Virus record (IMG/VR): IMGVR_UViG_3300032330_001391
Span: 117,103-160,908 of that record
DNA: 43,806 nt
From: a virus
Lineage: Duplodnaviria; Heunggongvirae; Uroviricota; Caudoviricetes
Reading direction: 5' to 3' (one strand)
Shown here in pieces: positions 1,519 to 35,700 of the stretch; position 1 is the stretch's first letter, and each line of letters starts with the position of its first letter. The notes under the pieces were generated by a model, which made no database searches, had not been told where the DNA came from, and saw only the letters and a program-made list of their open reading frames with translations. Position numbers and translations under genes: made by a program.

Positions 1519-3436
<1,918 letters not shown>

Positions 3437-3467
3437 TTTAATAACTTGTTTTGTATAAATATATTGT

Positions 3468-4214
3468 TTATAATTCTTTTGCAACTAAATAATAAGTACT
3501 TATTAAGGTTTTTCCTTCAGTATTAAATTCTAATTTCATAATACCATCTAAACTAATAGACATAGCTCCAAAGAACATATCTTTATTAGCTGACATTATT
3601 TCTCTAATCATATCTGAATTGTATTGTACTTTAAAATCTTCTGGTATGTTTGTTGTTTTTACGTCTGATAGGAAGAATGAAACTTTATTAGCGTGTTCTA
3701 CATTACCTCCAAATTCCATTTCAAGAATATATTCTCCATCTTCATTACGTGATGGTTTAATAACTACAGTCTCACTTTCTGCAACCGCTGTTTTAGCTTT
3801 AACTATTAAATTTATACTTTCATTATCAAGTAATGCTTTAATATTAAAATTAATATCACCTATAATATCACCAGACTTAGGTATAATCATTAAATCAGCT
3901 AATGAATAATTTACTGTAAAGCTGTTATCAGATATAATAAGTTTATATGGAGTAGTTTTATGTTTAGTATAACTTAAATCTAATTGACCATTAGTAATAT
4001 TAATTAGTTTATTAAGTTGAGTTGTATTACTAATTCCTACTTTAGAATCTTCTAATGGAAAATCAAGTAATGTAACATTACCAAGCATTTCTTTAGATGG
4101 AGATGTAAATTTAACGTTTAATATATTGTCTTTAACCTCCCATATAACAGCTTCATTCACACCATTTAAATAGTATTTAGATATAGCAGAGGTAAAATAT
4201 TGTTTTTGTATCAT
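3468..4214 (-). CDS. Sliding clamp (T4 gp45/PCNA-like), 248 aa from MIQKQY
   Basis: Size and alternating alpha/beta pattern fit a clamp. It lies between PolB and the clamp loader. The track's upstream start runs through a promoter site. Confidence 0.7.
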   Translation of the reverse strand: MIQKQYFTSAISKYYLNGVNEAVIWEVKDNILNVKFTSPSKEMLGNVTLLDFPLEDSKVGISNTTQLNKLINITNGQLDLSYTKHKTTPYKLIISDNSFTVNYSLADLMIIPKSGDIIGDINFNIKALLDNESINLIVKAKTAVAESETVVIKPSRNEDGEYILEMEFGGNVEHANKVSFFLSDVKTTNIPEDFKVQYNSDMIREIMSANKDMFFGAMSISLDGIMKLEFNTEGKTLISTYYLVAKEL

Positions 4215-4220
4215 AATATG

Positions 4221-4252
4221 TAAATATAAGTAAGAAATTTTAGGTAACCAAA
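4221..4252 (-). promoter_or_regulatory. Bacteroidota-type sigma promoter upstream of the sliding clamp
   Basis: Minus strand TTTG-N20-TATATTTA. Confidence 0.75.
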
Positions 4253-4257
4253 CTTTT

Positions 4258-7005
4258 TTAATCAAATTTAAAGAATCTATTTATGTTTTCATTAAACACT
4301 ACTACACCCCATCCTAAATCTTCATATAAATTTTCAAGTTTATTACGTATAACTGAGTCAAACATTTGACTTTTGTCAATATATTTTTCTACAAATTCTA
4401 AAATGTCCGGGGAATCATTGTAATTGTTTAGTCCTAAAACATCTATATGGTATGGATTTTCTTTTAAATAAGCAATATACATTTTATCTCCTATCTGAAA
4501 TGTATCATGATTTTTTGTTTGTTTTTTAAATCGAATTAAATCATTTGTGTATATAGCTGCTTTAGTATTAACAGGACACTTTAGTGCTAATTTAGAAAAT
4601 ATTTCTCCAGCTGATGGTTTTTGAGCTATATATTCATCTAATTTTTTTAGACCTGTTGGTTTAAGTAATTTTTTCCAATCTATTGTATTAAGTGATTTTC
4701 TAAAATCAAGTATGTACTTATCAATATCAGATTTAGGAGTATCAAATAATATTTTCTTAATTAATTCTTCACCAAATTCTCTAAATAGTGGAGGGAAATT
4801 AGATTTCATAATGTCTAAACCTTTCATATCTAAAGCGTCTTTATGATCTGGAGGAATTGGAACACCTTCTTTATTTACAATCCACATAGCGTATCTCCGT
4901 TTACCTGACCAATATGCTTTCTTTACGATTACTTCTTGTTTTAATTCAAAGTAGTGTTTACGTTGGATATTGAATACTTTTTTAGATATACTATCTAAAT
5001 TATGATTGGCCTCAGTTATAAGTTCTTGAGACAATTCAATTAATTTAGCAATTTTTTCTTCTTCATCCACAATGCTTGGATACTTTAAATTAAGTAAATC
5101 TTTTAACTCAACATAGGCAGAATCAGTATCTGATGCTATTACAAATTCTTTTCTACCATTATTTACAGCGTTTTCTAATTTAGAATTTATAAATATAATA
5201 CTTTCTTTAGTTAAACGTTGGCCTGAGTTAGTGATAGATGCTGAGCATATTTTATGTCCGTCAGTATATCTCCAACCATTAATAGCGTAAGTACCATACA
5301 ATGCGTTCTGTAAGATTTTAAAAGCAAGTTGATACAGGTCATATAATTTATAGTTTTCCCAATCTTCTTGTTTACCAGCCTTTTTCTTAAGTTCACGATA
5401 ATGTTCCCTTTGTTTAAACCAATCTTCTAATACTTCACATGAAATACTTTTAATATCATTTCTATAAAACGCACCGCTTGCTGATATAGACCAATTATTC
5501 TCTTCTATAAGTGATATTAAATCTTGAACTTTAATTTGGCCTTTTCTTAAATTATATGTTTTATGATTTAATTTTTCAATATCTAAAATAGTATCTAAAG
5601 GTAATTGTTTAAGTTGTTCTAATGAATTGTATTGCTCGTAATTATTTTTAGTTACTATTCGCCCAACTAATGTTTCTACACCTAAATTAAGAGACTTAAT
5701 AATACTTGGGTATAGACTAGTAAAGTCAGCATCACTAACATATGAATATAAACCAGGATTTGGTTCTAAAAGATAACCACCAGCGTATGAATCTTTTTTC
5801 CTTACCGTTTTTAAACTACGTTCTTTAAGTGTATTAGATTTAGTTCTAATCTGGCATTTGCCCGTTTTATCATCTATAAAAGTAATTGTACCTTCAACAG
5901 TTGGTGTACCTCGTTGATGTTGTACTTCATCACCTATATTAAGTTCTTTAATAGACTTATTAGTGGTAGTTGGTTTGTTAGGTGATATTATACCTTTACG
6001 TTTAAGATAAGTTAATATCGCACCTTCATTTAATACTGTATTATAATATATTGAATCATAAGGTACATGACATAAATGACATATTAAGACTGTTAATTTA
6101 ATAAATTGTAGTTTATTCTCTAACGCCTCAATAATCTCAACGTCACGTAAGTTATACTCAATAAATTTATCTGGGTCGTCTTTAAATAATTTATCTAATG
6201 AACCATTGTATTCTATTTTACCTAGTTTGGCATATTTTAATCCTATATCTCCTAATTTATAAGATGATTCTTCTTTCATGATGTATTTTTTAACTAACAT
6301 CATGTAATCTAAACTATTAACACCTCCTAAAGTAATAGGAGATTGAGGTGTATATGGACTGTCATTTATCTTTTTAATTGGAGATAAATACAGTACCATA
6401 TCATCACCTAGCATTTTTTTAATCCTAAAATACAAATATGGGATATCAAAGAAATCACTATTGTATCCTACTATAATTGTTGGATCTAATTGAATCCATA
6501 AATCTAAGAATTTACTAAGTAAATCCTGTTCAGTAAGACATGGTATAATTTCTTTATTATCTTTATTTACACATTCTATATTTTGTTTATCATCTAATAT
6601 TAAACAGTATTTTTTACCTGTTGTAACATCAATTAAAGCTATAGATGTGATTTTAGCATTAGCATCTCTAATAGATTGAGAAGTAAGTGTACCTAAAATT
6701 TCAATTTCAATATCAAGATAAATAATATTATGGAATGTAGGAGCAGAATCATCTTTATAATATAGATCCCTTAATATAGCTAATTCTTTTTGGATGTCCT
6801 TTTCTAGGATAGTAGAATCATTCCAATCAAATTTGCCTCTAATAGGTGAACAACTATCACCAAATAATGTTTGATATTCACCATCAAGATCTAATTTATA
6901 GACAGTAGGATAGTATTTAAAGGATGACCATCCTTTTTTGTCATCCCTTAAATAACATGTTCCTTTATCCTCACCACTATAAGAATAGTAAATACTTTGA
7001 TACAT
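4258..7005 (-). CDS. Family B DNA polymerase with 3'-5' exonuclease
   Basis: ExoI YLDIE, ExoII GYNSDFFD, ExoIII YNLRDV; motif A DFTSLYPSII, motif B KILQNALYG, motif C SDTDS, KKRYA-like KRRYA. Confidence 0.97.
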   Translation of the reverse strand: MYQSIYYSYSGEDKGTCYLRDDKKGWSSFKYYPTVYKLDLDGEYQTLFGDSCSPIRGKFDWNDSTILEKDIQKELAILRDLYYKDDSAPTFHNIIYLDIEIEILGTLTSQSIRDANAKITSIALIDVTTGKKYCLILDDKQNIECVNKDNKEIIPCLTEQDLLSKFLDLWIQLDPTIIVGYNSDFFDIPYLYFRIKKMLGDDMVLYLSPIKKINDSPYTPQSPITLGGVNSLDYMMLVKKYIMKEESSYKLGDIGLKYAKLGKIEYNGSLDKLFKDDPDKFIEYNLRDVEIIEALENKLQFIKLTVLICHLCHVPYDSIYYNTVLNEGAILTYLKRKGIISPNKPTTTNKSIKELNIGDEVQHQRGTPTVEGTITFIDDKTGKCQIRTKSNTLKERSLKTVRKKDSYAGGYLLEPNPGLYSYVSDADFTSLYPSIIKSLNLGVETLVGRIVTKNNYEQYNSLEQLKQLPLDTILDIEKLNHKTYNLRKGQIKVQDLISLIEENNWSISASGAFYRNDIKSISCEVLEDWFKQREHYRELKKKAGKQEDWENYKLYDLYQLAFKILQNALYGTYAINGWRYTDGHKICSASITNSGQRLTKESIIFINSKLENAVNNGRKEFVIASDTDSAYVELKDLLNLKYPSIVDEEEKIAKLIELSQELITEANHNLDSISKKVFNIQRKHYFELKQEVIVKKAYWSGKRRYAMWIVNKEGVPIPPDHKDALDMKGLDIMKSNFPPLFREFGEELIKKILFDTPKSDIDKYILDFRKSLNTIDWKKLLKPTGLKKLDEYIAQKPSAGEIFSKLALKCPVNTKAAIYTNDLIRFKKQTKNHDTFQIGDKMYIAYLKENPYHIDVLGLNNYNDSPDILEFVEKYIDKSQMFDSVIRNKLENLYEDLGWGVVVFNENINRFFKFD

Positions 7006-7022: not shown

Positions 7023-7475
7023 TTATTTTCCACTTGAACCAAATCCATTATCACCACGGAGTTGACTTTGTTTTAGTTCTTCAAATTCAGTATCGTTTAA
7101 TTCAACGATCTTGTATTTAGGTTTTTTAATAACAGCGATTTGAGCATAACGTTCACCTTCTTCAATTGTGACGTCTAATTTGCCTACGTTGTAAATTTTA
7201 ATACCTAAATCACCTGTGTAACCAGCATCTACTGTTCCATAATGAGGGATTAAATTATATTTAAATCCTTTACTACTACGTAGTTGAATTTGCATCCAAT
7301 AACGTTGACTATCATGGATTGTAAGATTTAATCCATTAGGTACTATAGCTGATCCTCCTGCTGGAATCACAGTTGTTTTAGTGCATGTAATATCAAAGCA
7401 TGCTGATGTTGAGTTATACTCGACCTTTGGTATAACGGCTTTAGGGTCTGTTTTGTGTGCGTAAATTGTAACCAT
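7023..7475 (-). CDS. dut: Trimeric dUTPase
   Basis: ACFD, LRSS, GTVDAGYTGD, AQ and RGDNGFGSSG motifs. Confidence 0.93.
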   Translation of the reverse strand: MVTIYAHKTDPKAVIPKVEYNSTSACFDITCTKTTVIPAGGSAIVPNGLNLTIHDSQRYWMQIQLRSSKGFKYNLIPHYGTVDAGYTGDLGIKIYNVGKLDVTIEEGERYAQIAVIKKPKYKIVELNDTEFEELKQSQLRGDNGFGSSGK

Positions 7476-7485
7476 TTTATCTATT

Positions 7486-7656
7486 TTAAAGTTCTTCTAA
7501 TATTCCTAATATTTCAGCTAGGATTAATAATATACCTGCTGATTGCATATATAATCCTCTACCGAGGAATAAAGATATGCCTGCTCCTATTCGTATTACT
7601 GATTTAAGGATACTAATCCTAAAATGCCAATTTGTTTTACTTTCTTTTTCCTGCAT
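7486..7656 (-). CDS. Small membrane protein (56 aa)
   Basis: Not in the ORF track. Reads MQEKESKTNWHFRISILKSVIRIGAGISLFLGRGLYMQSAGILLILAEILGILEEL*, fills the folE-dut gap exactly and has two hydrophobic segments. Confidence 0.7.
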   Translation of the reverse strand: MQEKESKTNWHFRISILKSVIRIGAGISLFLGRGLYMQSAGILLILAEILGILEEL

Positions 7657-7657
7657 A

Positions 7658-8293
7658 TTAATTCATTTTAGTACCATTAATTTCAATTGCGTGGAGGAAT
7701 TCTTCACGGATTAAATTGTCTTTCTCCATAAACACACCTGAAAACTTATTAGTTGTCATTACAGATGGATGTTTAATACCACGATGACTGCAACAAGTAT
7801 GCTTACATGCTATACTCACAGCTACTGATTCACATTTCATTTTATCAGCAATGTAATCATGAATTTGTTGAGTAAGTGATTCTTGCATTTGTGGGCGACG
7901 AGCGAACCATTCTACAATACGATTAAGTTTACTTAATCCAATTACATTTTCACCAGGCACATATGCTACAGTAGCATAACCAGTAAATGCTAAATTATGA
8001 TGAGCACACATACTAACAATAGGAATACCAGATTGAATAACTAATCCACTGTATCCTTCATCATTTGGGAATACTGTGATGTTAGGTTCATTTGTAACTG
8101 ATCCTACAATTAGATCTTTTAACCAAGCCTTAGCTACACGTCGAGGTGTATCTTCTGTCTGGCGATCTGCTTCATAATCGAATCCTACTGCTTGTAGGAA
8201 TTTGCCGTAATAATAAGCGGCGTGGTCTATCATCTCATTTATCTCAATTTCTGTACGAGGAAGATTACCATTTGATTTTTTTAATAAATCCAT
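7658..8293 (-). CDS. folE: GTP cyclohydrolase I
   Basis: TPRRVAK, SMCAHH, GLSKLNR, RRPQMQE, HTCCSHRG. Confidence 0.96.
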   Translation of the reverse strand: MDLLKKSNGNLPRTEIEINEMIDHAAYYYGKFLQAVGFDYEADRQTEDTPRRVAKAWLKDLIVGSVTNEPNITVFPNDEGYSGLVIQSGIPIVSMCAHHNLAFTGYATVAYVPGENVIGLSKLNRIVEWFARRPQMQESLTQQIHDYIADKMKCESVAVSIACKHTCCSHRGIKHPSVMTTNKFSGVFMEKDNLIREEFLHAIEINGTKMN

Positions 8294-11571: not shown

Positions 11572-12413
11572 ATTTCTTCAACATGTTTTTTAGCAGTCTC
11601 CCAAGTAACAGGACCTAAATCTAAATCAGCATATTCTACTGGGTCTGGGCGACCTAATTTAATAAACGCTTCAATACGTTCTACTGATGAAGCTGATTTA
11701 TAGTCTGAGTACCATTTGCCTGAATTGTCATGGTCCCAGGTATTGTATATGAAAATAGGTTTATAAGACGTATTAGTGCGTTTATATACTTCATCAAAGT
11801 CTAATCCTAATTGTTCACAGCATTCTAAACCATGTTTTAATATTTCAAATTTATCTACATGTAAAAACGGTGTTACAACTTTTACTTTTTCAGAACCCCA
11901 ATTACCTAATTTAAATGCTTCAAAATCAGCATCTCTAAATTCTTGTCTACAATCAGGATAAATAGCATGGTCACCAGCATGTATACCCATTGCAATATCA
12001 CATTCAGCATTATTTTGTTCAGCAATAGATAACGCTACAGCTTGAATAATACTACTGAATATTTTATTACGATTAGGTACTACTGTTGCTTTCATATTTT
12101 CTTCAGCATAGTGTCCTTCAGGCACATCATCTCCACCTGTTACTAATGTTGAATTAAGTAATTCAGATAAACCATCTAATTTGATTATTTGATGAGTTAC
12201 TTGTGGGTATTCCTTACATAACCACCCTTGTGATGGATCTGAATTGATGTATTTAACTAATTCAGTTGCTCGTTCTAGTTCTATTCTATGTTTTTGACCA
12301 TAATCAAATGATAAACAGGTGACATGATAATTTTGAGCTAATAAGTTTAGCAACAAAGTGCTTGAATCCATTCCTCCACTTAACGAGAGTACCGCGTATT
12401 TTTTCTTTTCCAT
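11553..12413 (-). CDS. queC: 7-cyano-7-deazaguanine synthase
   Basis: LSGGMDS, FDYGQKH, VVPNRN, GIHAGDHAIYPDCR. Confidence 0.95.
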   Translation of the reverse strand: MEKKKYAVLSLSGGMDSSTLLLNLLAQNYHVTCLSFDYGQKHRIELERATELVKYINSDPSQGWLCKEYPQVTHQIIKLDGLSELLNSTLVTGGDDVPEGHYAEENMKATVVPNRNKIFSSIIQAVALSIAEQNNAECDIAMGIHAGDHAIYPDCRQEFRDADFEAFKLGNWGSEKVKVVTPFLHVDKFEILKHGLECCEQLGLDFDEVYKRTNTSYKPIFIYNTWDHDNSGKWYSDYKSASSVERIEAFIKLGRPDPVEYADLDLGPVTWETAKKHVEEILASHS

Positions 12414-12418
12414 AATTT

Positions 12419-12450
12419 TAAATATACTAAATATCTTTTAATTTTCCAAA
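12419..12450 (-). promoter_or_regulatory. Bacteroidota-type promoter upstream of queC
   Basis: TTTG-N20-TATATTTA. Confidence 0.7.
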
Positions 12451-12923
12451 TAAACTCTATCTTTTGTACCCATATGTTGCTCATACCACTGTTTACGATC
12501 CATATCGTACCAACGGTAAGGCAATGTTGGATCATCATTCCATTCATTTACTCCATACCAGTTAGCATCTTTTCGTAAAAGGTTTGCTCTATGTGAACGA
12601 TGAAATTCTTCATTTCCAAACCATAAAGGCATTACTATTTCTTCAGTAATAGTTTCTTTTTGCATTGTGTTGTTTTTACCACGTGCTACCCAAACGTCTA
12701 TAGAGTCATTTAGATACTGCTTTAAAGCAGGTAAATTATCTCTAAACATTTGACTAATAGGATGGTTAACTCTACCTTTAGAATATGGTTTACCAGCTTT
12801 AGTTGGTCTACCTTCTAAACCAGCTATAAGCTGGTAGGTTTCTACTCGTTGTTTGCCTAAGCGTTTATTATCTAAGGATTCAAGAGATTTTTTAAAATCG
12901 GGGTATGGGAGAAATACTTGCAT
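12438..12923 (-). CDS. Pyrimidine-dimer DNA glycosylase-like protein (T4 endonuclease V/DenV-like; MSMEG_6728-type)
   Basis: MQVFLPYPDF...LDNKRLGKQRVE N-terminus, NHP, PLWFG..EFHRSHRANLLRKD. Confidence 0.75.
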   Translation of the reverse strand: MQVFLPYPDFKKSLESLDNKRLGKQRVETYQLIAGLEGRPTKAGKPYSKGRVNHPISQMFRDNLPALKQYLNDSIDVWVARGKNNTMQKETITEEIVMPLWFGNEEFHRSHRANLLRKDANWYGVNEWNDDPTLPYRWYDMDRKQWYEQHMGTKDRVYLEN

Positions 12924-14266: not shown

Positions 14267-14863
14267 TTATTTTAAAAGAGAGTAGTATTCTTTAAAATGC
14301 TTTGTTCTATCAGCTAAACCAATTGTTCCGCCATTTACTTTTCTAGTTACCGCTACAACAGCAGTATCATCTGCTCCTTTATCGCACGATGCCCATAATC
14401 CATTTTTATCAAAAAACCAAGCAGCAGACATTAGTGGGTATTTAGTAGCTACTAGATCTGGGTTAGCTAAGATATCATCTTCAACTGTAGCATCAAATGC
14501 TTTATAGTTGTCCTTTCCAGTTAATTGAATATAACCACGACCACGGAACTTATATCCGTCTTTTGATGCTTCATCTCCGTTACCCATTCTACCACCATAC
14601 ACTCTTGCTGCAATTTTTTCAGGTTGGCGAGCATAAGATTCATTTAATGTACCAGGAAAGTATTTAGGAAATACTTTTTTAAGTCCTTCAGCTGAGTAGT
14701 TTAAATTTTCTGATGTGAATTTAAAACCACCAGATTCATGGCCACACTGAGCTAAAAAGTGAGCTAAGCGAAGTGATGTAGTAATGTTAAATTTTGCTGC
14801 TGTGTCTGGAATTTGGGCTAGTACCGCGTCAGGAATGTGCCCTTTGAGTTTGTCTAAGTTCAT
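14267..14863 (-). CDS. Endolysin, glycoside hydrolase family 19
   Basis: LAHFLAQCGHESGGF, FRGRGYIQLTGKDNY, SAAWFF, TRKVNGG..GLADR. Confidence 0.93.
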   Translation of the reverse strand: MNLDKLKGHIPDAVLAQIPDTAAKFNITTSLRLAHFLAQCGHESGGFKFTSENLNYSAEGLKKVFPKYFPGTLNESYARQPEKIAARVYGGRMGNGDEASKDGYKFRGRGYIQLTGKDNYKAFDATVEDDILANPDLVATKYPLMSAAWFFDKNGLWASCDKGADDTAVVAVTRKVNGGTIGLADRTKHFKEYYSLLK

Positions 14864-14873
14864 AGTGTGTTAT

Positions 14874-15614
14874 TTAATTACAGTTTGGATTAACGATTAT
14901 ATCTTCTAATGCTGCTAAGTCGAGTAAGTCGATATTACCATCTTTAACAATGTCAGCTCTGTAGTAGTATCCAAATACACCAACTAACTGCTCTATTGCT
15001 GATAGGTCTATTAAATCTACATTACCATCTCCATTTATATCTCCTCGTCTCAATATTGTATACACCTTTTCTGCAAAACATCCTCTATCATCTTCTACCG
15101 TTATTTTGTATGTATCATAACTTAGATTATCTTGACGTACAGAAAAATACTCTGTAGGGTTGTTTATTATATTTCCAGCACTGCCTTCCCATGTTGTTAC
15201 ATATGGTTGAAGATCTGCTGTACCACCAGTAATTTCCAAACTAATAGCACCATCACTCATCCCACAAGTGACTGGATTTTCTGTAGTAGGATTTATGATT
15301 ATTGGATCTGGTTCTATTACTACTAATGTATTGCAAATTGACTCACTATCTAATGCAACACATGCTGTATATTCTCCTGCTGGTAAGTTAAAAAACATAC
15401 CATGGTTATTGGTTATTACAGTATCAATACTTGACACTGAATATGTGAATTGAGGATCTACTGTTGTTACAGCAGGGTACGCCATAATATTAATATATCC
15501 ATCTGTTCTACCATGACAGGATATTTGTTGATCAACATAAGCTATCGCGGTAAATGTTTGAGCAGATATACTAGTAAAACTCAACAGTATTAGGAGTGTG
15601 ATTACAAATTTCAT
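14874..15614 (-). CDS. Secreted protein with two SprB-type repeats and a C-terminal dockerin-like (paired Ca-loop) domain
   Basis: Signal peptide MKFVITLLILLSFTSISA|Q; ISCHGRTDGYI and VTCGMSDGAISLEITGGT...PY repeats; GDINGDGNVDLID...ADIVKDGNIDLLD. Confidence 0.75.
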   Translation of the reverse strand: MKFVITLLILLSFTSISAQTFTAIAYVDQQISCHGRTDGYINIMAYPAVTTVDPQFTYSVSSIDTVITNNHGMFFNLPAGEYTACVALDSESICNTLVVIEPDPIIINPTTENPVTCGMSDGAISLEITGGTADLQPYVTTWEGSAGNIINNPTEYFSVRQDNLSYDTYKITVEDDRGCFAEKVYTILRRGDINGDGNVDLIDLSAIEQLVGVFGYYYRADIVKDGNIDLLDLAALEDIIVNPNCN

Positions 15615-15617
15615 GGT

Positions 15618-16025
15618 TTAGTTGTATCTATTTTTTCTGATTTCCTTTAATTGCTTATAACGCTTTTTATACTCTTTATAAGAGCATGTATCAAAGAACA
15701 TCGCTGTTTTATTTGTTTCTTCAAACCATTTAGATAAACCACGATTGATGTCGTAGCATTCTCTTATTTGAGCTTTATAACGAGCAGAGATAGTTGTATC
15801 TTCTTTTACAACAATTATTGTATCAATAATGGGAGGTTTACTTAATTCCTTCTTCTGAGAATCAATTATTGCATTATACCTTAAAAACTGAATATTAATG
15901 TTATCCGCCTGTTCTTTGGTAACTAATACAATTTGTTGACCATTAATTGTTCTTGTCTGAGGATATTGGCAATAACTGGTAAGTGCTAGTATCAACAGGC
16001 TCACCAACATTAGAAACTTTTTCAT
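15618..16025 (-). CDS. Exported protein, candidate outer-membrane spanin (135 aa from MKKFLM)
   Basis: Signal peptide ending LTSYC|Q and additional Cys residues. The gene overlaps the 3' end of the TM/coiled-coil gene, as in overlapped spanin pairs. The lipobox is not canonical. Confidence 0.45.
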   Translation of the reverse strand: MKKFLMLVSLLILALTSYCQYPQTRTINGQQIVLVTKEQADNINIQFLRYNAIIDSQKKELSKPPIIDTIIVVKEDTTISARYKAQIRECYDINRGLSKWFEETNKTAMFFDTCSYKEYKKRYKQLKEIRKNRYN

Positions 16026-16281
16026 ATAATTGTTTATTTTCGGTTTTAAGTACTGTGACAACCTTAGATAAACTGTCAGCAGCTTTTTCAGCATGTTTAA
16101 GTTCACCAATTCTTTTTGATATAGTTTTTTGATTTTTTTCTGTCGTTACTTTAATTAAACTATCTATGTTAACTTGTTCCCATGGTTTAGTTTTTATAAC
16201 GCTAGGTTTTTGTCCAGTCATAGTAATCACAATCAATGAGGCTACTATGATGGCTATCAGTGTATTTTTATTTCGTAGCAT
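15943..16281 (-). CDS. Candidate inner-membrane spanin
   Basis: N-terminal TM helix (TLIAIIVASLIVITM) followed by a coiled coil; located in the lysis cassette. Confidence 0.5.
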   Translation of the reverse strand: MLRNKNTLIAIIVASLIVITMTGQKPSVIKTKPWEQVNIDSLIKVTTEKNQKTISKRIGELKHAEKAADSLSKVVTVLKTENKQLYEKVSNVGEPVDTSTYQLLPISSDKNN

Positions 16282-16576
16282 TGATTATAGCTTGTTGAGT
16301 TATTAAATTAAGAATAACTGAATCTTTCGCGTCAATTTTCTTCTCTAAGGCCTTGTTATTTTCAATACAATTATCTAATCCTTTTGTGTCTGTTTTTTGT
16401 TTATCTTTGTATAGATAAACCATTCCAAATATGCATAGGAATGCTACAGCAGCTATAGGATATTTTCTAAACTGATTAAAATTAACAGGTAATTTAAAGC
16501 TTTCACTCGCTGTTTCAACTGTTTCCTTAGCTACACTTTTCTTAGGTGCGGTTGTTGGTTTTTTAGCTGTTGCCAT
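16268..16576 (-). CDS. Single-TM coiled-coil membrane protein (holin/antiholin-like)
   Basis: One TM segment (PIAAVAFLCIFGMVYLY) followed by a coiled coil; located in the lysis cassette. Confidence 0.5.
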   Translation of the reverse strand: MATAKKPTTAPKKSVAKETVETASESFKLPVNFNQFRKYPIAAVAFLCIFGMVYLYKDKQKTDTKGLDNCIENNKALEKKIDAKDSVILNLITQQAIINATK

Positions 16577-16823
16577 TGTCTTCAGTTGATGTGTTTGGTT
16601 TTTTAGTAAATTTGTCTAATGTATCGGCACCCATGCCAATAGCTGTAATTACTAAAACAGCATTAACTAAACTATCAGCGGGTTTAAATTCTTCATGCGA
16701 ATAACTATTTAGTGTCATAGTTACACATAAAAATAAAGTACCAATAAATGCTACTACGGGTTTAACTGAGGTTGAACCTCTTTCGTCTTTGAATAATTCG
16801 ACGATCCATTGTTTGAATGTCAT
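16563..16823 (-). CDS. Holin-like protein with two TM segments
   Basis: 86 aa, two hydrophobic helices and a charged C-tail; first gene of the cassette that ends in the GH19 endolysin. Confidence 0.6.
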   Translation of the reverse strand: MTFKQWIVELFKDERGSTSVKPVVAFIGTLFLCVTMTLNSYSHEEFKPADSLVNAVLVITAIGMGADTLDKFTKKPNTSTEDNGNS

Positions 16824-16890: not shown

Positions 16891-16921
16891 AAAAATAAAA
16901 AAAGCCACATTTCTGTGGCTT
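16891..16921 (-). terminator. Rho-independent terminator with GAAA loop
   Basis: Minus strand AAGCCACA-GAAA-TGTGGCTT followed by a T tract, 26 nt after the stop at 16947. Confidence 0.85.
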
Positions 16922-16946: not shown

Positions 16947-17573
16947 CTATTTTGATGTTATGTAATTTAAAACTTCTTTTGAAATATCATCATAAGAATC
17001 ATCTTCATCCCAAAATTCTGTAAAATAATCATACATTTCATCGTATGGAAACAAATCTTTATCTAAGTCTGGATTTTCTTTAAAAATATTATCAATGTAT
17101 GCTTTTACTTCTGGTTCTAAATTAAGAGTACCATCAAATGTCCATCCCATACCATCTGGATCTCCTGATTTTCTTCTAAGGATATCAATAGACTTAATAT
17201 ATCCAGGTGGTATTCTATTTTTTATGTTAGAATATATTCTTACTTCTTGATATTCAGGATGGTTAGGTATATCTAATTCTTTAAAGTCATAATTTTTGTC
17301 GTTTTTAATTTTATTCAAATCAATAGATACCCTCACAGTATATGGTGTGTCATTATCTCCATATGGGTTAGAATCTACCCAATCAGAATCTTTACTAGTA
17401 GATGTATAATAAGAATATCCGTAATCTGGAAGCTCAAAAAACTGAGAATTTGATTTATTATCTCCCATTTTTATTCCATTAGACTTTATATCTGGCAAAC
17501 TTTTTTGGCTCCTATAGGTATAGACAGTACCTCCATTAATATTTTCCTTTAATAAGTCAATTAGTTTAATCAT
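16947..17573 (-). CDS. Putative R-S-E ADP-ribosyltransferase with an N-terminal MIKLIDLLKE leader (208 aa)
   Basis: VYTYRS (Arg), YTSTSK (STS), EYQEVRI (catalytic Glu) and IPPGYIKSI in ART order. The ATG at 17573 follows the RNR stop and a TATTTATA motif. Confidence 0.6.
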   Translation of the reverse strand: MIKLIDLLKENINGGTVYTYRSQKSLPDIKSNGIKMGDNKSNSQFFELPDYGYSYYTSTSKDSDWVDSNPYGDNDTPYTVRVSIDLNKIKNDKNYDFKELDIPNHPEYQEVRIYSNIKNRIPPGYIKSIDILRRKSGDPDGMGWTFDGTLNLEPEVKAYIDNIFKENPDLDKDLFPYDEMYDYFTEFWDEDDSYDDISKEVLNYITSK

Positions 17574-17584
17574 GGATATAAATA

Positions 17585-19435
17585 TTACACTATTTCGCAC
17601 GCTCCTGAAGCGCATGCAACTTGATCCATTAATGCTGTATTATCACTAAATTCTACAATCTTAGATAGATCAATTTGGTGAAGATGTATCACCATATTAT
17701 TGAATTGTTCTTCAGTGATGTCTTCATAAGGACTTTGTACGTACGAACCCCCATGGTATGGCAAAACTGATAAGCCATTAAATGTTTCTTTATTTTCCCA
17801 CATCCATTGTCCTACTTTTTCCCATTCGTCTTCTTTAATTGATACTGTAGCAGATACATTATTTGTGTTAGCGCCTTTACGATGACCTTTCTTCACCCAC
17901 TGTGTATTAAATCGTTTAACACGCTCTAACATATCCATAACATCTTCAGTTCGTACAATAGAACATTTAGGTGCGCGTTGTGGAACTGAAATTACTGCTT
18001 GGATTGTAGGTTTGAAGAAATCATCTTCAACTAATTCGGGGTGATTAATTGCTAAGTGTGTGTATATGGCTTCATTTTTACCTACACGGATTCTTCTAAT
18101 ATAATAATCATTATGCCAAGCATGAATACCACTTGAGGTACCTAATACTAATGAACTAGTACCACTTGGTTTAACAGTTGTTACACGAGCAGCTTTATTT
18201 ATACCAATTAATTCAGCTACACGAGCGTTTTCTTCTTTAGATAAATCAGCTGCTTTTTTAAGGTCATATTCTAATATTGCTCCAGAACCAATACCTGTCA
18301 TACCAACACCGAGTAACGCGTCTTTTTCGGTTGTTTTGCGCCAGATATCGCGCAAATAATGAAAATCAGTATATGCTGCTTGTAGCGTACCAATAAACGC
18401 ACCTATACGTACTCGTTCGTTTAAATCTTCTTGTGATTCAACATTAGACACATTTACCTCACATAGGTTACAGAATTGGAATGGACGTAAAGCAATTTCA
18501 CAACATGGATTAGTACCCCAATCTTTGTCGTTACTGAAATATATTCCTGGTTCTCCTGAATTGCTTAATTCAATTTTCTTCCATAGTTTGAAGAATTCAT
18601 CTTCAGTAATTTTATGTCGTACTACTACAGCACTATTATTTGCTCGTCCACGTTGTGGATTTTCTTCCCACCAATTACCAAATTTACAAGTCAGCATTTC
18701 TTCATCATCCAAATCAAATAATGCAATTAGTGCTGCTCGTCTAATACCTCCACTTAGTACAGCGTCAGCGATATGACAAGCCATATCGTGTACTTCTACA
18801 GATGTAAGTTTAGAACCGTTTGTTTTACGTTCAAATATTTTTTGTAAATTAAATAAACATTCTTTTAATGGTTCAGGACCAGGTGCTTTACCTCCTACAG
18901 TAATTAACTGAGCGCCCTTAGGTCGAATGTCTCTAAAATCAAATAGTGGTAATGCACCACCATCCAAATATGCTTTACATAACATTCTAACAGCGTCCGC
19001 CCATCCTTCAATACTATCACCTACTAAGTATCGCTTATGTTTTACTGGTACTGTAATTTCAGGTAATTTTTCAATATGGTGCGTTTGTACACTATATCCA
19101 ACTCCACATCCCGATAATAATAAGAACATAATTTCACTAAATGCTCTCATATCGTCTATCGGAAGAAACGAACAGTTAAATATACGTGAATTATTTAATT
19201 CAATTGGTCGTCCTGCAAATTGCAGTGAACGCATTGATGGTAATACTTTTTTAGCATATACCAATTTGTATGCTTCTTCAATTTCATCTTTAAGTTGAGG
19301 AAATTTTTCTAAATGCATGTTTTTGTTTCTGTCGACTAGTTCAGTCCATACTTCTCGTCTTTTCAACTCAGGGACATATTTACTGTACTTCATATAGACA
19401 GTAATGTCGCTGAGGATTTCTTGCTCAATATTCAT
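17585..19435 (-). CDS. nrdJ: Class II (adenosylcobalamin-dependent) monomeric-type ribonucleotide reductase
   Basis: LPSMRSL, FNCSF, GTNPCCEI, FCNLCEV, TTVKPSGT, C-terminal ACASGAC; no beta-subunit gene adjacent. Confidence 0.93.
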   Translation of the reverse strand: MNIEQEILSDITVYMKYSKYVPELKRREVWTELVDRNKNMHLEKFPQLKDEIEEAYKLVYAKKVLPSMRSLQFAGRPIELNNSRIFNCSFLPIDDMRAFSEIMFLLLSGCGVGYSVQTHHIEKLPEITVPVKHKRYLVGDSIEGWADAVRMLCKAYLDGGALPLFDFRDIRPKGAQLITVGGKAPGPEPLKECLFNLQKIFERKTNGSKLTSVEVHDMACHIADAVLSGGIRRAALIALFDLDDEEMLTCKFGNWWEENPQRGRANNSAVVVRHKITEDEFFKLWKKIELSNSGEPGIYFSNDKDWGTNPCCEIALRPFQFCNLCEVNVSNVESQEDLNERVRIGAFIGTLQAAYTDFHYLRDIWRKTTEKDALLGVGMTGIGSGAILEYDLKKAADLSKEENARVAELIGINKAARVTTVKPSGTSSLVLGTSSGIHAWHNDYYIRRIRVGKNEAIYTHLAINHPELVEDDFFKPTIQAVISVPQRAPKCSIVRTEDVMDMLERVKRFNTQWVKKGHRKGANTNNVSATVSIKEDEWEKVGQWMWENKETFNGLSVLPYHGGSYVQSPYEDITEEQFNNMVIHLHQIDLSKIVEFSDNTALMDQVACASGACEIV

Positions 19436-19764: not shown

Positions 19765-21126
19765 TTATCCTAATTCAAAGAATTTTTGTTTTAATTGTTG
19801 TTTATCAAATGAATCAAATGTATTAAAGCTACTTGCCTGAGCTGATGGTGGTGTTTCATCATCTTGATCAAATTCACCTAATACTTCAATATGACCATTA
19901 GATGTATTAACTTTAGCTGAGTATGTCATTCCGTCCATTCCGTATCGGTTTTTCATAACATGAAATCTACCTGTACCATTTACTTTATCTTGACGTTTAC
20001 GAGATAATGATATTGCTACATCTGTGATCATGATTTTATCGTAACTTCCAGCTGCTTTATCACCCTCAATAACATCGTCTTTAGCACCAGCACGGTTAAC
20101 TTGAGATACTGACCAAATTGGTATATTTAACTCTCTTGCTAATCCTTTAGTGCTTACATAAATATCATCAATTTCTTCTTTACGTTCTCTATTCATACGT
20201 TTTGAACGTAAAAGATCAACATAATCTATGATAATTAAATCTGGTTTAAATTCCAAATCTATACATTTTTTAATATGAGATTCAATTGTTGAAATAGTAG
20301 CTTTACCAGGTGAATATTCCTTAATAATTAAATTACCAGGTAATACATTTACTTCTTTTTCAACATTATCTTTAAATTTAGTAATTTTACCAACATCTAT
20401 ACCAGTGAAGAAAGCGTCATAACGTCTACCAACATAGTCAGATCCTAACTCTAATGTGTAGTGAACAACATTGTATCCCATCTTAATAGCCCATCCTCCT
20501 AAAGCAATTAATGCCCATGACTTGCCTCCACCTGGGTTACCAAATATTAGACCAAAATCACCACCACCTAATCCTCCTTGTAGCATATCATTAAATGTTT
20601 CCCAAGGTGTAGCTATAGGTACTCTATGATCTTCACGGTATCGTGATTCAGTATCTTTATTATATTCATGACCTAAATTTTTATCTTGACCTGCTTTAAG
20701 AGCATTATCAATTAGATGTCTTATAGAATCATAATCTCCAGCGTTTAGTAAGTCTACACTATTAAGTAATGCTTTTTTTAATTGTTGATTTTTACAGAAA
20801 TTACTAAACTCTTCCTGTATGTATTTTAAATCCTCATCAGAGGCTTTATATGCTTCTTTTAATTGTTCCTTAATAGACAACTGTAGCACCTCATTGTCTA
20901 TTTTTTTCAATTCTACCTTTAAGACCTCCATACTAGGAGGACAATGGTATTTGTCGTAATATTTTAATATTTCTTTAATTACCCATTTTTGTGATTGATT
21001 TTCAAAATATTCATCACTCAACACATCATGAACATTGAGTAAAAACTCTTTATGTGTGAGGAGCGATGATATAACTTTGATTTGAAAACCAGTCCCATAT
21101 TGGGATAGAGATTGTAAACTGCACAT
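19765..21126 (-). CDS. Replicative DnaB-like helicase (T4 gp41-like)
   Basis: Walker A GNPGGGKS, HYTLE, IIIDYVD, WSVSQVNR, KNRYG. Confidence 0.93.
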   Translation of the reverse strand: MCSLQSLSQYGTGFQIKVISSLLTHKEFLLNVHDVLSDEYFENQSQKWVIKEILKYYDKYHCPPSMEVLKVELKKIDNEVLQLSIKEQLKEAYKASDEDLKYIQEEFSNFCKNQQLKKALLNSVDLLNAGDYDSIRHLIDNALKAGQDKNLGHEYNKDTESRYREDHRVPIATPWETFNDMLQGGLGGGDFGLIFGNPGGGKSWALIALGGWAIKMGYNVVHYTLELGSDYVGRRYDAFFTGIDVGKITKFKDNVEKEVNVLPGNLIIKEYSPGKATISTIESHIKKCIDLEFKPDLIIIDYVDLLRSKRMNRERKEEIDDIYVSTKGLARELNIPIWSVSQVNRAGAKDDVIEGDKAAGSYDKIMITDVAISLSRKRQDKVNGTGRFHVMKNRYGMDGMTYSAKVNTSNGHIEVLGEFDQDDETPPSAQASSFNTFDSFDKQQLKQKFFELG

Positions 21127-21135
21127 GTATATAAC

Positions 21136-22167
21136 TTATTTTTTAAAACTGTTTAATAATTTAAAAGTATCATTTAACCAATATTCCGTATTTTTTATCA
21201 TTCTACCTAATCCATCTTCTTCATAATACCCCATAAACTCAACTGTATCTAATGATGGTACATCCTCTTCAACTACTATTTTTAAGAATTCTTTTTCTTC
21301 ATCACTTATTAAAGGATTACCTAAATTCATTACTTTAAAATTGTTTTCTAATCGAGTTCTATCTAATATAACCCTAGCATATACTTCATGTTCTTTGTAT
21401 TTATTAGCGCTTATTTCAAATATATTATCTAATATCATTGGTGTAGTTAGAAGTTCTGGGTATTTCTTTGTTATGCCTTTTTCTCCTAACCCTTTAACAC
21501 CAGGCACTTTATCTGAATTGTCTCCTAATAATGTCTTATATAAGATAAAATTTTCTGCTAATACTCCAAACTTATTTTTAATAGTTTCTTTATTATAGAA
21601 TTCTTTTTCAGTTGGACGATATACTACAACGTTTTCATTTATAAGCTGTAAAAAATCTTTATCATTAGAAACAATGTATACTTTAGAATTATATTTTTCA
21701 ACTAAATGTTTACTGTAGTATGCAATTATATCATCAGCTTCTACTTTATCTATAGCTACTGTTTTAACAGGTAGACATTCTAAGTAATGAATTAATCTAC
21801 GCATTTGATCAGCTTTAGCTTCATTCTCATCATCTAAATGTTGAAACATATCCCAGTTAGTAATACGAAAATTTCTACCTGATTTATATTCGGGGTGTAG
21901 GTTCTTCCTGTTTGTGGAAGAACCCATACCGTCGAATATTACATACACAGATGTAGGTTGTGTTTGGTTTATAAGAGTACCCAATGATCTCAAAAATCCA
22001 CCTAATCCTCCTACATGAGAACCAGAATCATTTATTAAATTAATCATCGCGAAATTTCTAAAAAATAAGTTCAATCCATCTATTAGGAGAACTCTATCGT
22101 GTACCTTATCTTCAACAATTTCATGTTCAGATAAGTTATTGAGCATTTTGAGTAAATCTTTATTCAT
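21136..22167 (-). CDS. 5'-3' exonuclease / flap endonuclease (Pol I N-terminal domain / T4 RNase H family)
   Basis: LLIDGLN, VIFDG, RKNLHPEYKSGR, EADDII, SNDKDFLQL, LLGDNSDKVPGVKGLGEK. Confidence 0.93.
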   Translation of the reverse strand: MNKDLLKMLNNLSEHEIVEDKVHDRVLLIDGLNLFFRNFAMINLINDSGSHVGGLGGFLRSLGTLINQTQPTSVYVIFDGMGSSTNRKNLHPEYKSGRNFRITNWDMFQHLDDENEAKADQMRRLIHYLECLPVKTVAIDKVEADDIIAYYSKHLVEKYNSKVYIVSNDKDFLQLINENVVVYRPTEKEFYNKETIKNKFGVLAENFILYKTLLGDNSDKVPGVKGLGEKGITKKYPELLTTPMILDNIFEISANKYKEHEVYARVILDRTRLENNFKVMNLGNPLISDEEKEFLKIVVEEDVPSLDTVEFMGYYEEDGLGRMIKNTEYWLNDTFKLLNSFKK

Positions 22168-22170
22168 ATA

Positions 22171-23268
22171 TTAATCTTCTTCTTCGTCAAATGAACCATT
22201 AAACACATCTAAACTTTCTTCCCACTGTGAGTTATCTTCATGAATATCGTAATTACCTTTTCCTAAAATATTAACCCACTCGTTTGAATGTTGTTCTTTA
22301 TACTTCTTGATAGCGTTAGCATCATCTTTAATAAAACCGTGAACTGTAGATACAATAGTACCTTTTGTAGTGATTCCATTAACATGATTTTTATCACAAG
22401 CTACCCTAGTACGTAATGCAAATTCTACTTTTTTCTTATCCTTCATTGCCTCAATCTTAGATGTACCAGCGTTAGTAATATTACCAAATGTAAGACATAA
22501 TGAGGCATCGTAATACATAGTGTCACCACCTTTATTAGTCATACGAACCTGTTCCATAGGTGTCTTAGGACGAGTATTACCTGTTTTGTTCACAATAAGT
22601 AACGTGTTAGTATATGGAGATGATTCTTTACGTGACATTACAATCTGTTGATTTACAAAATTACCAAACTGATTAGCAATAGCACCTGCATTCCACATTG
22701 CATCATTCTTACCATGGTCTAGACTTAACTGACAAGGTATAGAACCAATTGAATCCCATATAAATAAGAGATCATGAGGTAAATTACCTTTCTTTTGTTC
22801 ATCTAACATATCAATAATGAACGCTGCTATGTCTTCAATAGAATGAAGTGTTGTACGATCTCTATAGATAAAAAATCCTTCATGATCTACTACTTCTTCG
22901 TTTTCATCTAAGATATCAGTCATTTCAAAACCCATTGTTCGCCAGTGATTCCAATCATGTTTCATCTCAGTGATAATAAGTACAGGTAATACTCCCATTT
23001 TTTGAGCATTAACTGCTGCTTCAATAGTAGTGGTAGATTTACCTGTATTACTTCTACCCCTTACTGTAACAATATGACCCATAGGAATACCAGGAATAGA
23101 TAGTACTTCTTGGAGAGCTGAAGAGAATGGGATCCAACGTTGGTCTTTAAACTTAACGTTGGATGCTAGACCTTTCTTTTCTTTAAACTTGTTTAAGTCA
23201 AATTTAGATTTAAGTTCTGATGATACAGCCGCTGTAAGCGATGCTATATCCTTTTTTTCTTTAGCCAT
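22171..23268 (-). CDS. RecA/UvsX-like recombinase
   Basis: Walker A GRSNTGKST, Walker B FIWDSIG, KGG..MYYDAS. Confidence 0.85.
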   Translation of the reverse strand: MAKEKKDIASLTAAVSSELKSKFDLNKFKEKKGLASNVKFKDQRWIPFSSALQEVLSIPGIPMGHIVTVRGRSNTGKSTTTIEAAVNAQKMGVLPVLIITEMKHDWNHWRTMGFEMTDILDENEEVVDHEGFFIYRDRTTLHSIEDIAAFIIDMLDEQKKGNLPHDLLFIWDSIGSIPCQLSLDHGKNDAMWNAGAIANQFGNFVNQQIVMSRKESSPYTNTLLIVNKTGNTRPKTPMEQVRMTNKGGDTMYYDASLCLTFGNITNAGTSKIEAMKDKKKVEFALRTRVACDKNHVNGITTKGTIVSTVHGFIKDDANAIKKYKEQHSNEWVNILGKGNYDIHEDNSQWEESLDVFNGSFDEEED

Positions 23269-30942: not shown

Positions 30943-31266
30943 TTATTGGTTTATTAGTTTAAACGCACTTATTACACCTTGAGGATTATTTGGTATTCTA
31001 ATCTGTAGTCCTTCTGGTATAACTAATGAATTTTGAGGTAAATCAGATGGAAGTGATGTACCTGCTGTTGCTGTATTAGCAATTGATATTATCCACCATA
31101 ATGATGGATCATTATAATATTGTTTAGCCAATACATCAAATCTATCACCTTGAGATGAATAAACATAAATATCATCTGCACTTACAGGTACTTCTGGATA
31201 ACGAGACGTTACATATGCTTGTCTTGTATTCAGTTTAGTTTGTGGTATGTTTTGGTAACGGTTCAT
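30943..31266 (-). CDS. LysM-like / tail-X-type baseplate protein
   Basis: SQGDRFDVLAKQYYNDPSLWWIISIAN...GLQIRIP. Confidence 0.78.
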   Translation of the reverse strand: MNRYQNIPQTKLNTRQAYVTSRYPEVPVSADDIYVYSSQGDRFDVLAKQYYNDPSLWWIISIANTATAGTSLPSDLPQNSLVIPEGLQIRIPNNPQGVISAFKLINQ

Positions 31267-31268
31267 GT

Positions 31269-32951
31269 TTAACTATCATAATTATTTTTATTAAGTCCTA
31301 TTCCATTAGCTAAAGCTATATATCTTTGTGGACCATATCCTTTATTATCTGTTAATATTGCCGTTTCATTAAATTCTGAAATAGTTTGTTTAGATACTAT
31401 AAAGTCATGTATTGGAGTAAAGGCAGCGGTTACTTTAATCATATGAGGTAATTCTTTTACTGATTTATCTTCACCTGTTGTACTTAATCCTATTTCCCAT
31501 GGTGTATCACTTGATATATCATACGTAAGAGAACTAAAGAAACCAACCTGTTCATATAAATATCCACCAACTGTAAGCTGTATTAAATTACCAGCCATAT
31601 ACCCACTTGGAGTATAATCAGGAGCTAAACTAGAAGCTAAGTAATTTAGTTTTTTATACATAGGTATAAGCTCTTGTTTAGATTGAGCCGCTACTGTCCA
31701 TCCTATATTAATAGCACGAGTAAAATTACTGTATGTATAGAAATTTTCACCACGTCCAAGATATGTTACAGGATTCCAAGATGCGTTATATGAATCAGAA
31801 AAATTATCTATAAATGCTCTAAAATGCATAAATGTTTTGCTTGTAGGAGTTTGGTTATCTATTATAGCAATTCTAAATTTAGCTAAATCATTTGTTCTTT
31901 CTCGAGTTTCATCAACTGCGTTACTTTTATATATTGGGAGAGCGTTTATTTTATCTACTGGTCCTATACCTGAGCCACTACTGTATGATGTTAAATTTTT
32001 GCCTGCCTTATATCCAGGCCCAACATTATTCGAACCACCTATATTAACCCTATTTTCAAGATTTTTATCATTATAATCTGGGGCATCAGGGGTTGCTCCC
32101 GACTCTTCAGCTTGTTTTTTAGGTATACTTGATAAAGCACTTCTAATTCTTTGCCTAAAATCTATTATAGTAGGTGAACCAGGTTTAGTATTATTATCTG
32201 TTACAAAAGATTCTAATCCAGGAGCTATTGACATTACTGAGTCAATGCCTACTTGTTTTTGTGAGTAAGTAAAAACACTATTTTTATTTACAAGAACAGA
32301 TGGATTGTATGTATTAGTCCTTTGATCAGCATATCTTATACCTGTCTTTCCAACACCTAATGTTGAACCAGGACCACCATCATACGTAAGTACATTAACT
32401 CCATTATTTAATGTAAATCCATTTAATCTATGTGGTATACCAACATTTATACTACTATAAAGATTATATAATCGATTTTCTTCAGCAGATTGATTAGATG
32501 TTACTTTAACTCCATATAAATTAGGATTGTTAGAATAAATTCCTGTTTCAGCAAATGGATTTAAACCTTGTTTTAAAACGTGGCCTCCTAATCCAACTAA
32601 ACCAGCTTCAGTTAATGTGGATAAAGGAGTATAAATTCCTTCATTTAATAATCCACTTGTTTGTGTACGTACAGCAGTACGTGATAGTAAATTTTGTTTA
32701 GCAATAAAAAATAAACCATTTATAGATTTAGGATCTTTAAACATTTTAGCTAAACGCTGAATGTCCAGTGCGCTATTTCTAGCCACTAATGCCCCTCCCC
32801 TTAAGATAAAATCATTGCTAGATGATTGAAGATTATTAAATCCTTCAGGTATAGGGATCTGTATGTATGGTTGTCCACTATTTCCACCACCTAACTGATC
32901 ATTACCGTAACGTAAAGACTTTAAGTTAGTTTTGAGATTGATTAAACTCAT
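31269..32951 (-). CDS. Baseplate tail-tube initiator-like protein
   Basis: C-terminal tube-like domain (FRAFIDNFSDSYNASW...LGRGENFYTY...PMYKKLNYL); located between the tape measure and the LysM-like gene. Confidence 0.6.
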   Translation of the reverse strand: MSLINLKTNLKSLRYGNDQLGGGNSGQPYIQIPIPEGFNNLQSSSNDFILRGGALVARNSALDIQRLAKMFKDPKSINGLFFIAKQNLLSRTAVRTQTSGLLNEGIYTPLSTLTEAGLVGLGGHVLKQGLNPFAETGIYSNNPNLYGVKVTSNQSAEENRLYNLYSSINVGIPHRLNGFTLNNGVNVLTYDGGPGSTLGVGKTGIRYADQRTNTYNPSVLVNKNSVFTYSQKQVGIDSVMSIAPGLESFVTDNNTKPGSPTIIDFRQRIRSALSSIPKKQAEESGATPDAPDYNDKNLENRVNIGGSNNVGPGYKAGKNLTSYSSGSGIGPVDKINALPIYKSNAVDETRERTNDLAKFRIAIIDNQTPTSKTFMHFRAFIDNFSDSYNASWNPVTYLGRGENFYTYSNFTRAINIGWTVAAQSKQELIPMYKKLNYLASSLAPDYTPSGYMAGNLIQLTVGGYLYEQVGFFSSLTYDISSDTPWEIGLSTTGEDKSVKELPHMIKVTAAFTPIHDFIVSKQTISEFNETAILTDNKGYGPQRYIALANGIGLNKNNYDS

Positions 32952-33223: not shown

Positions 33224-33253
33224 AGTTTTATGTTTTAGTTATAAATATTAGTA

Positions 33254-35644: not shown

Positions 35645-35671
35645 ATTAAATTGTATATGTAATAAATATTA

Positions 35672-35700
35672 AAAGGCATCATTTTTTACGTGATGCCTTT
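35672..35700 (-). terminator. Perfect 10-bp inverted repeat (probable terminator/attenuator) overlapping the chaperone-extension stop
   Basis: AAAGGCATCA-N9-TGATGCCTTT, located between the chaperone extension and the tape measure start. Confidence 0.6.

Follow-up and report, generated by a model that had tools for sequence, protein, structure and literature searches.

Among myoviruses, ADP-ribosyltransferases (ARTs) that are packaged in the head are believed to be widespread, although only one of them, Alt of phage T4, has been studied directly (PMC9503650). The T4 prohead protease gp21 cleaves its substrates after L/I-x-E; Alt sheds a propeptide of 7 residues, and the capsid-targeting sequence (CTS) of the internal protein IPIII comprises its first 10 residues, of which positions 4 and 7 serve targeting and positions 8 and 10 serve processing (PMC9026906). 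The internal proteins of the T-even phages have only this CTS tag in common (PMC3012670). Here we describe a gene in a 43,806-nucleotide stretch of viral DNA (the window; positions 117,103 to 160,908 of IMG/VR record IMGVR_UViG_3300032330_001391), which forms the last 43.8 kb of the 160.9-kb record of a T4-like phage with 30.6% G+C. This gene (16947..17573, minus strand, including the stop codon TAG) encodes a 208-residue protein, P0001, which is very probably an ART (hereafter the ART protein) and which begins with the decapeptide MIKLIDLLKE.

We give an even chance to the reading that the ART protein would be made late, loaded into the head, trimmed by the phage protease and injected. Residues 11-140 would form the catalytic core of an enzyme of the R-S-E clade (defined in PMC9503650), in which NAD+ binding and catalysis would fall to Arg21, Ser58-Thr59-Ser60 and Glu110. 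On the model of the 10-residue CTS of T4 IPIII, the leader would attach the protein to the prohead core, and a gp21-type protease would remove it after L8-K9-E10. The gene would be transcribed late, together with those of the head proteins, and the mature enzyme, carried in the head, would enter the next host with the DNA and modify a host macromolecule (protein or nucleic acid) for takeover or counter-defence. Catalysis and its target, the late timing and each step of delivery (packaging, cleavage and injection) are inferences, and the delivery model fits every comparative test that was run.

The predicted ART fold and its active-site residues

The open reading frame (ORF) runs on the minus strand from an ATG at 17573 to a TAG at 16949-16947. 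Among 5.8 billion proteins, a word-indexed search found 20 homologue clusters (68-97% identity), all of them unnamed and all with the MIKL start. A longer frame of 222 residues, from 17615, was rejected, because it overlaps the 3' end of the upstream ribonucleotide reductase (RNR) gene and because all homologues begin with MIKL and none uses it. ORF calling and the homologue starts thus agree on the ATG and the MIKLIDLLKE terminus that had been chosen in an earlier, model-made reading of this DNA (the first-pass annotation).

That annotation had also proposed an ART fold, to be checked with AlphaFold and Foldseek, and the outcome bears it out. The homologue alignment comprises 21 sequences, two of which are truncated at the N-terminus, and the AlphaFold2 model built on it has a mean predicted local distance difference test score (pLDDT) of 78, with strands at residues 16-22, 55-60, 78-85, 96-99, 110-115 and 126-133, followed by three C-terminal helices. 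The predicted ART-fold core spans residues 11-140 (17154..17543, minus strand). The best 50 matches of a Foldseek search against PDB were all ART-fold proteins, with Tpt1/KptA, ScARP, the cholera and pertussis toxins, DarT, scabin, pierisin and MTX among them. In a VIA structural comparison Tpt1 scored best (Z 10.5, root-mean-square deviation 3.3, 101 aligned residues); Z was 8.6 for CC0527, 8.3 for the Rhs ART toxin TreX, 8.2-8.3 for TreX/TreTu, 7.7 for both DarT and pertussis toxin, and 7.5-7.6 for LT-IIB, PltA, scabin and ScARP. When the model was aligned, independently of Foldseek, to 48,161 representative chains, members of the ART superfamily took 48 of the top 50 positions, the remaining two rows matching the C-terminal helices only. 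Among the viral predicted structures of BFVD, the matches included phage proteins that carry a DarT, KptA or PARP-like annotation. Taken overall, the ART assignment, based on this model, is very likely to be correct, being strong at the level of the fold and good at that of the active site.

The three C-terminal helices belong to an acidic module (residues 150-208; 16950..17126, minus strand; pI 4.05), which also gave three helices when folded alone (pLDDT 73.5); by itself, this module had no fold match in PDB at E <= 0.001.

The ART superfamily is defined by a split beta-sheet with an NAD+ cleft. In its R-S-E clade, the Arg lies on strand 1, the STS motif closes strand 2, and the catalytic Glu opens strand 5 behind the ADP-ribosylating turn-turn (ARTT) loop. 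The ART protein carries VYTYRS (17525-17508, residues 17-22), YTSTSK (17408-17391, residues 56-61) and PEYQEVRIY (17258-17232, residues 106-114), then IPPGYIKSI (17213-17187), in just the order given by the first-pass annotation, whose positions were off by a few bases only. Arg21 (codon 17511..17513, minus strand; YTYRS) is the penultimate residue of predicted strand 16-22, where Y20-R21 forms the aromatic-Arg motif at the end of strand 1, and it occurs in all full-length homologues. Ser58-Thr59-Ser60 (codons 17394..17402, minus strand; YYTSTS) close predicted strand 55-60. The motif E107-Y108-Q109-E110 (codons 17244..17255, minus strand) ends in the candidate catalytic Glu, E110, which follows a ten-residue loop and opens predicted strand 110-115, the start of strand 5; the spacing from STS to Glu is 52 residues. 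Four residues of the alignment are invariant (S58, E107, Y108 and E110), and R21, T59 and S60 are kept in at least 90% of the rows, R21 being absent solely from the two N-terminally truncated ones. Arg, STS and Glu, which had been put forward as an R-S-E triad, thus stand on the expected predicted strands and are conserved among the full-length homologues; in the model, R21, STS and E110 occupy the R-S-E positions.

The closest structures are the NAD+-binding lobes of Tpt1/KptA (Z 9.4-10.5), and they raise the question of whether an ART fold might here serve something other than the modification of macromolecules. The protein could be an NADase acting on the NAD+ pool, an RNA-repair 2'-phosphotransferase like Tpt1/KptA, or an inactive binding module. 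The (Q/E)-x-E dyad goes with protein or DNA targets, ExE with arginine and QxE with asparagine or guanine; this dyad of protein- and DNA-targeting enzymes is absent from the ART protein, and no target can be deduced from it. A Tpt1-like activity is opposed by several differences, however: the match is limited to the C-terminal lobe of Tpt1 (chain residues 84-186), the N-terminal RNA-binding lobe is absent from the ART protein, which has Arg (on strand 1), Ser (on strand 2) and Glu where Tpt1 has the residues of the H-H-h clade, His included, and Pfam PTS_2-RNA has no match. We consider this group of explanations, as a whole, quite improbable.

At the level of sequence the protein stands apart. 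An exhaustive HMMER pass over 1.84 billion representatives found fragments of its own family and two spurious matches, to a PKD-like repeat protein and a helical repeat protein, which were discarded as repeat-driven. Neither a profile search nor one directed at longer proteins revealed any distant or fused relatives, and tblastn against 50,697 phage records, with Flavobacterium phage immuto among them, gave no match. A feature search of the ESM Atlas produced unnamed viral clusters and low-ranked clusters annotated as DarT/PARP and Arr, which we treat as leads only. By these searches, the ART protein is a narrow, sequence-orphan family, and it escapes recognition by sequence annotation. The lack of a database annotation is all that speaks for a non-functional ORF whose motifs arose by chance in an AT-rich spacer. 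This explanation is hardly conceivable and is already refuted by the full-length conservation of the 20 clusters (68-97% identity) in several genomic contexts, and by a confident fold with matches that all come from one superfamily.

Several points count against an R-S-E enzyme. The convergence of R21, STS and E110 on one cleft is predicted from strand positions only. E107-Y108-Q109-E110 is neither ExE nor QxE, since an invariant Tyr occupies position -2 and the other acidic residue is found at -3; this may be a sign of a new target specificity. There was no meaningful ART match in Pfam (E up to 10), in PHROGs or in phmmer and profile searches of PDB. Finally, hhalign comparisons with T4 Alt, ModA and ModB gave a probability of 2% or less.

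The leader decapeptide and the prohead protease

The leader MIKLIDLLKE (codons 1-10; 17544..17573, minus strand) contains the sole [LI]-x-E of the protein, L8-K9-E10. It lies outside the predicted ART core, as judged from a pLDDT below 50 at residues 1-11; the core begins at about residue 15. The phage encodes a prohead protease of the Peptidase_S77 (T4 gp21) family (E 5.8e-30, above the curated cut-off), whose gene adjoins the scaffold-position and gp23 capsid genes. In support of the first-pass annotation, the leader ends in L-x-E, the phage has a protease of the gp21 type, and the decapeptide recurs at N-termini in the same genome as a detachable leader. The leader pattern M[IL].[LFI][ILVT].[ILV][LI].E occurs at nine ORF starts and at none of 50,759 internal positions, and the bodies of the nine proteins, which are unannotated, are unrelated save for one paralogous trio.

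A different reading is that the protein acts as an ART inside the producing cell, as ModA and ModB do, and is never packaged. The decapeptide would then have some other role, the candidates being an amphipathic docking helix, a feature of AT-rich leaderless-type mRNAs that affects stability or the start of translation, or a recombination cassette. We regard this as possible but doubtful. The size of the protein (208 residues, against 200 for ModA and 207 for ModB) agrees with it, but the leader terminates precisely with the L-x-E at which proteases of the family encoded by this phage cut. Of the 19 full-length ART homologues, 18 retain this motif; the remaining one has LLE shifted by one residue towards the N-terminus. 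Moreover, the leader codons differ synonymously both among the copies in the genome and among the homologues; therefore the peptide, and not the RNA, is the selected entity.

The sequences that follow the leader and the other leader types also speak against an unpackaged enzyme. Five of the nine leader ORFs continue with M(R/K)(V/I)N after the leader, and the corresponding site ([LIV]-x-E followed directly by MRVN(E/K)P) is present 17 times in the genome, with several occurrences inside proteins of 218 to 1278 residues. The genome has the nine-ORF decapeptide class and two more leader classes; one of these, EFxRMQKLAGI, copies the C-terminus (RMQKLAGI) of an acidic scaffold-position protein encoded between the protease and capsid genes. 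Related internal sites ([LIV]-x-E followed by MR(V/I)N(E/K/D)P) are located outside the window, in minus-strand ORFs of the genome (C1) at 20914-22188, 30952-31608, 31621-32274, 32279-36115 and 37211-38674, with three sites each in the ORFs of 424 and 1278 residues. In sequence, such long proteins look like polyproteins with protease joints. The acidic scaffold-position protein (C1 12002-13093, minus strand, also outside the window) has the C-terminus ...FERMQKLAGIKK; this motif starts four ORFs as well (20914, 25373, 45281 and 141741) and is internal in ORF 37211. A complex prediction for the prohead protease and ART residues 1-45 scored 0.00, a result that carries no weight either way.

The leader is widespread beyond this genome: its back-translated pattern was found in IMG/VR at no fewer than 120 loci (L042-L161), with at least 133 ORF starts. 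The cargo includes Zeta_toxin/AAA_33 kinases (L045, L049), leucine-rich repeat (LRR) proteins (L097) and many orphans, and we also noticed HAD-like proteins with a DMDGV motif (judged by eye; the one in L059 has no Pfam match). A 159.6-kb IMG/VR contig (L065) has a second ORF with the same leader at 12169-12552 (plus strand), right after the ART homologue that starts at 11520. Its product, of 128 residues (...NVLYHYTEE...), has a sub-threshold match to Pfam Tox-ART-HYD1 (E 1.1e-3, 20 bits against a cut-off of 25), so that, by sequence, this contig may hold a tandem pair of leader-tagged ARTs. The resemblance of the other leader cargo to conflict effectors (Zeta-toxin-like kinases, LRR proteins and the weak ART-HYD1 match) is a further argument against an ART that stays in the producing cell.

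The structural-gene motif and the surroundings of the ART gene

The ART gene is preceded by a late-type promoter-like motif, ATATTTATA (17577..17585, minus strand), which begins on the final base of the RNR stop codon and leaves 3 nt to the ATG. Genome-wide, this 9-mer has 38 copies on the coding strand and 2 on the other strand. For 29 of the 38, against an expected 1.7, an ORF starts 2-23 nt downstream of the motif; the two structural regions, with 92 ORFs, account for 23 of these 29, and the remaining region, with 140 ORFs, for 6. The motif stands before the genes of the portal (16 nt), large terminase (3 nt), tail sheath (23 nt) and tail tube (21 nt), and also before many leader-tagged genes. 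As for the late-type motif of the first-pass annotation, these counts, together with the portal, terminase, sheath and tube genes, identify TATTTATA as the structural-gene motif of this phage, while the late timing itself we only infer: the ART gene has its own copy of the structural-gene motif, and is therefore probably transcribed late. Such a motif in front of the gene is not what would be expected of an enzyme that is never packaged.

The upstream gene (17585..19435, minus strand) encodes a class II (B12-type) RNR, with Pfam matches to Ribonuc_red_lgC and RNR-II_ins_dom and tblastn matches to phage nrdJ, and its end is separated from the ART ATG by 11 nt. Downstream, at 16894..16921 (minus strand), there is an intrinsic terminator, whose hairpin (16921-16902) has a GC-rich stem of 8 bp and a GAAA loop and is followed by a T7 run. 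The hairpin folds with an energy of -15.9 kcal/mol (z = -4.8), which none of 200 shuffled sequences equalled, in agreement with the terminator that had been noted after the gene. A generic sigma-70 promoter scan gave background levels and is uninformative for this phage.

The ART gene ends, as the reading without packaging would have it, a block of replication and nucleotide-metabolism genes, 11 nt after RNR and under the terminator of that block. However, T4 alt (NC_000866 123454-125502; L163) adjoins the DNA ligase gene and lies outside the head module, much as the ART gene adjoins RNR; the position beside RNR is therefore no argument against packaging.

The ART gene and its homologues are found in different neighbourhoods. 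In this window the gene follows RNR; in L001 it comes behind a homing endonuclease that is itself inserted downstream of RNR, in L040 behind DNA polymerase B, in L038 and L039 behind GroEL and a small ORF, and in L035-L037 it lies in an annotation-free block. The arrangement of ATATTTATA, 3 nt and ATG is kept in three neighbourhoods, i.e. in this window and two others. In these comparisons, the ART gene behaves like a mobile unit equipped with start signals of its own. In the 167-kb relative L001, a 195-residue ORF (7417-8004, plus strand) lies between RNR and the ART homologue, with a 4-nt overlap with the ART start; judged by eye it looks like a GIY-YIG-type homing endonuclease, and it stands in the place of ATATTTATA. 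In relatives L038-L040, Cpn10 and Cpn60 genes adjoin the ART homologue. The window itself has a GroES-like and GroEL-like pair (assigned by eye) at 3146-5135 (minus strand; genome 120248-122237), with ATATTTATA 17 nt before the GroES-like gene.

The phage also encodes a portal, a large terminase, tail sheath and tube proteins, a UvsX-like recombinase and a DnaB-like helicase. Among cultured phages, Flavobacterium phage immuto has the closest capsid protein (52.6% identity), and the hosts of the phage described here are probably Flavobacteria. Just past the ART terminator, at 14270-16823 (minus strand), we observed a probable lysis block with its own TATTTATA, which comprises two or three small membrane proteins, a protein matching Glyco_hydro_19 and a secreted protein with weak matches to SprB and dockerin.

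Several points have to be set against delivery in the head. With an interval of only 11 nt, the ART gene could be read through from the replication operon. The late motif is absent in two homologue contexts (L001 and L035-L037), and a single-sequence search of the genome found no homologue of T4 gp55. The depletion of internal [LI]-x-E in leader-tagged proteins was not significant (P about 0.2), and the phage is uncultured and known from sequence alone. An enzyme acting only in the producing cell would be in keeping with the two contexts lacking the late motif, as well as with the movement of the gene start (motif, ATG and leader codons) as one unit from context to context.

A bolder proposal can be made, which we offer as a rather unlikely conjecture. 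The orphan ART family, restricted to aquatic T4-like phages (probably of Flavobacteria), might be a mobile late cassette, composed of promoter motif, ATG and address tag, that moves between genomic sites and whose product is loaded into the head by means of a widespread ten-residue tag. Its E-Y-Q-E motif might direct it at a target class other than those of the ExE/QxE enzymes, e.g. nucleic acid or a component of defence signalling.

Comparison with known ARTs and head-targeting tags

The R-S-E toxins (cholera/LT, pertussis S1, PltA, scabin, pierisin and TreX/TreTu) share with the ART protein the fold (Z 6.5-8.3, 102-114 aligned residues), and they carry Arg, STS and Glu in the same succession on the same strands. 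They differ from it in sequence (10-19% identity, no family profile match) and in having ExE/QxE in place of E-Y-Q-E. Moreover, they are secreted toxins, whereas the ART protein is encoded by a phage and has no parts for delivery and no B subunit.

ModA and ModB, of 200 and 207 residues, are phage R-S-E ARTs of similar length. They have EQE[VW]MIP at the equivalent place, where EQEVMIP of ModA may be compared with EYQEVRIY of the ART protein, and the sole hhalign segment to ModA, which is not significant, pairs QEV with QEV. In contrast to the ART protein, their ART core is C-terminal (Arg at about 72, Glu at about 165), they have a true E-x-E dyad and they lack a CTS-like leader. Both are made early and are not packaged.

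The tags of IPI-IPIII resemble the leader described here in being ten residues long and N-terminal, in their hydrophobic positions 4 and 7 and in L/I-x-E at 8-10; positions 4, 7, 8 and 10 of the ART leader are L, L, L and E. In both cases, the tag is found on otherwise unrelated proteins of a phage with a gp21-type protease (PMC9026906, PMC3012670). MIKLIDLLKE differs from the T4 tag in sequence, however, and its family is larger, with nine ORFs and two further classes in this genome and at least 133 ORFs in IMG/VR. Targeting and cleavage are known for the T4 tag, while for MIKLIDLLKE they are predicted from sequence. The ART protein would provide an enzyme-bearing member to this tag family, which marks dozens to hundreds of unannotated proteins of aquatic phages.

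The closest counterpart in function would be T4 Alt, which is carried in the head and injected. Like the ART protein, it is an ART of the R-S-E type from a T4-like myovirus with a gp21-type protease, and it has a short N-terminal propeptide ending in (L/I)-x-E: Alt begins with MELITE..., which ends in I-T-E. The two proteins are also alike around the Arg, where both have YRSQ(K/R)xLPxI, Alt residues 474-486 (ITLYRSQRMLPSI) resembling ART residues 17-29 (VYTYRSQKSLPDI). This pairing of VYTYRSQKSLPDI with ITLYRSQRMLPSI is the best local match to Alt, though over 13 residues and with an E of 0.084 (BLASTP) it is not significant. Pfam ADPrib_exo_Tox, the Alt/VIP2 family, has no match in the ART protein (E up to 10), nor was the hhalign comparison significant, so that "Alt-like", as used in the first-pass annotation, does not hold as a statement of family membership. 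The architecture differs too: Alt has 682 residues, its ART lying C-terminal to a large N-terminal region, while in the 208 residues of the protein described here the ART is N-terminal and only a small acidic tail follows it; the leader of this protein is 10 residues long, as in IPIII, and common to many other proteins.

Packaging is proven for Alt, whereas for the ART protein it is predicted. That myoviruses package ARTs is an established idea (PMC9503650); what is new here is an unusually small and divergent candidate with a non-canonical dyad. If it is packaged, it would be a second and far smaller example beside T4 Alt and, should the assignment to Flavobacterium hosts be true, one from phages of a different bacterial phylum.

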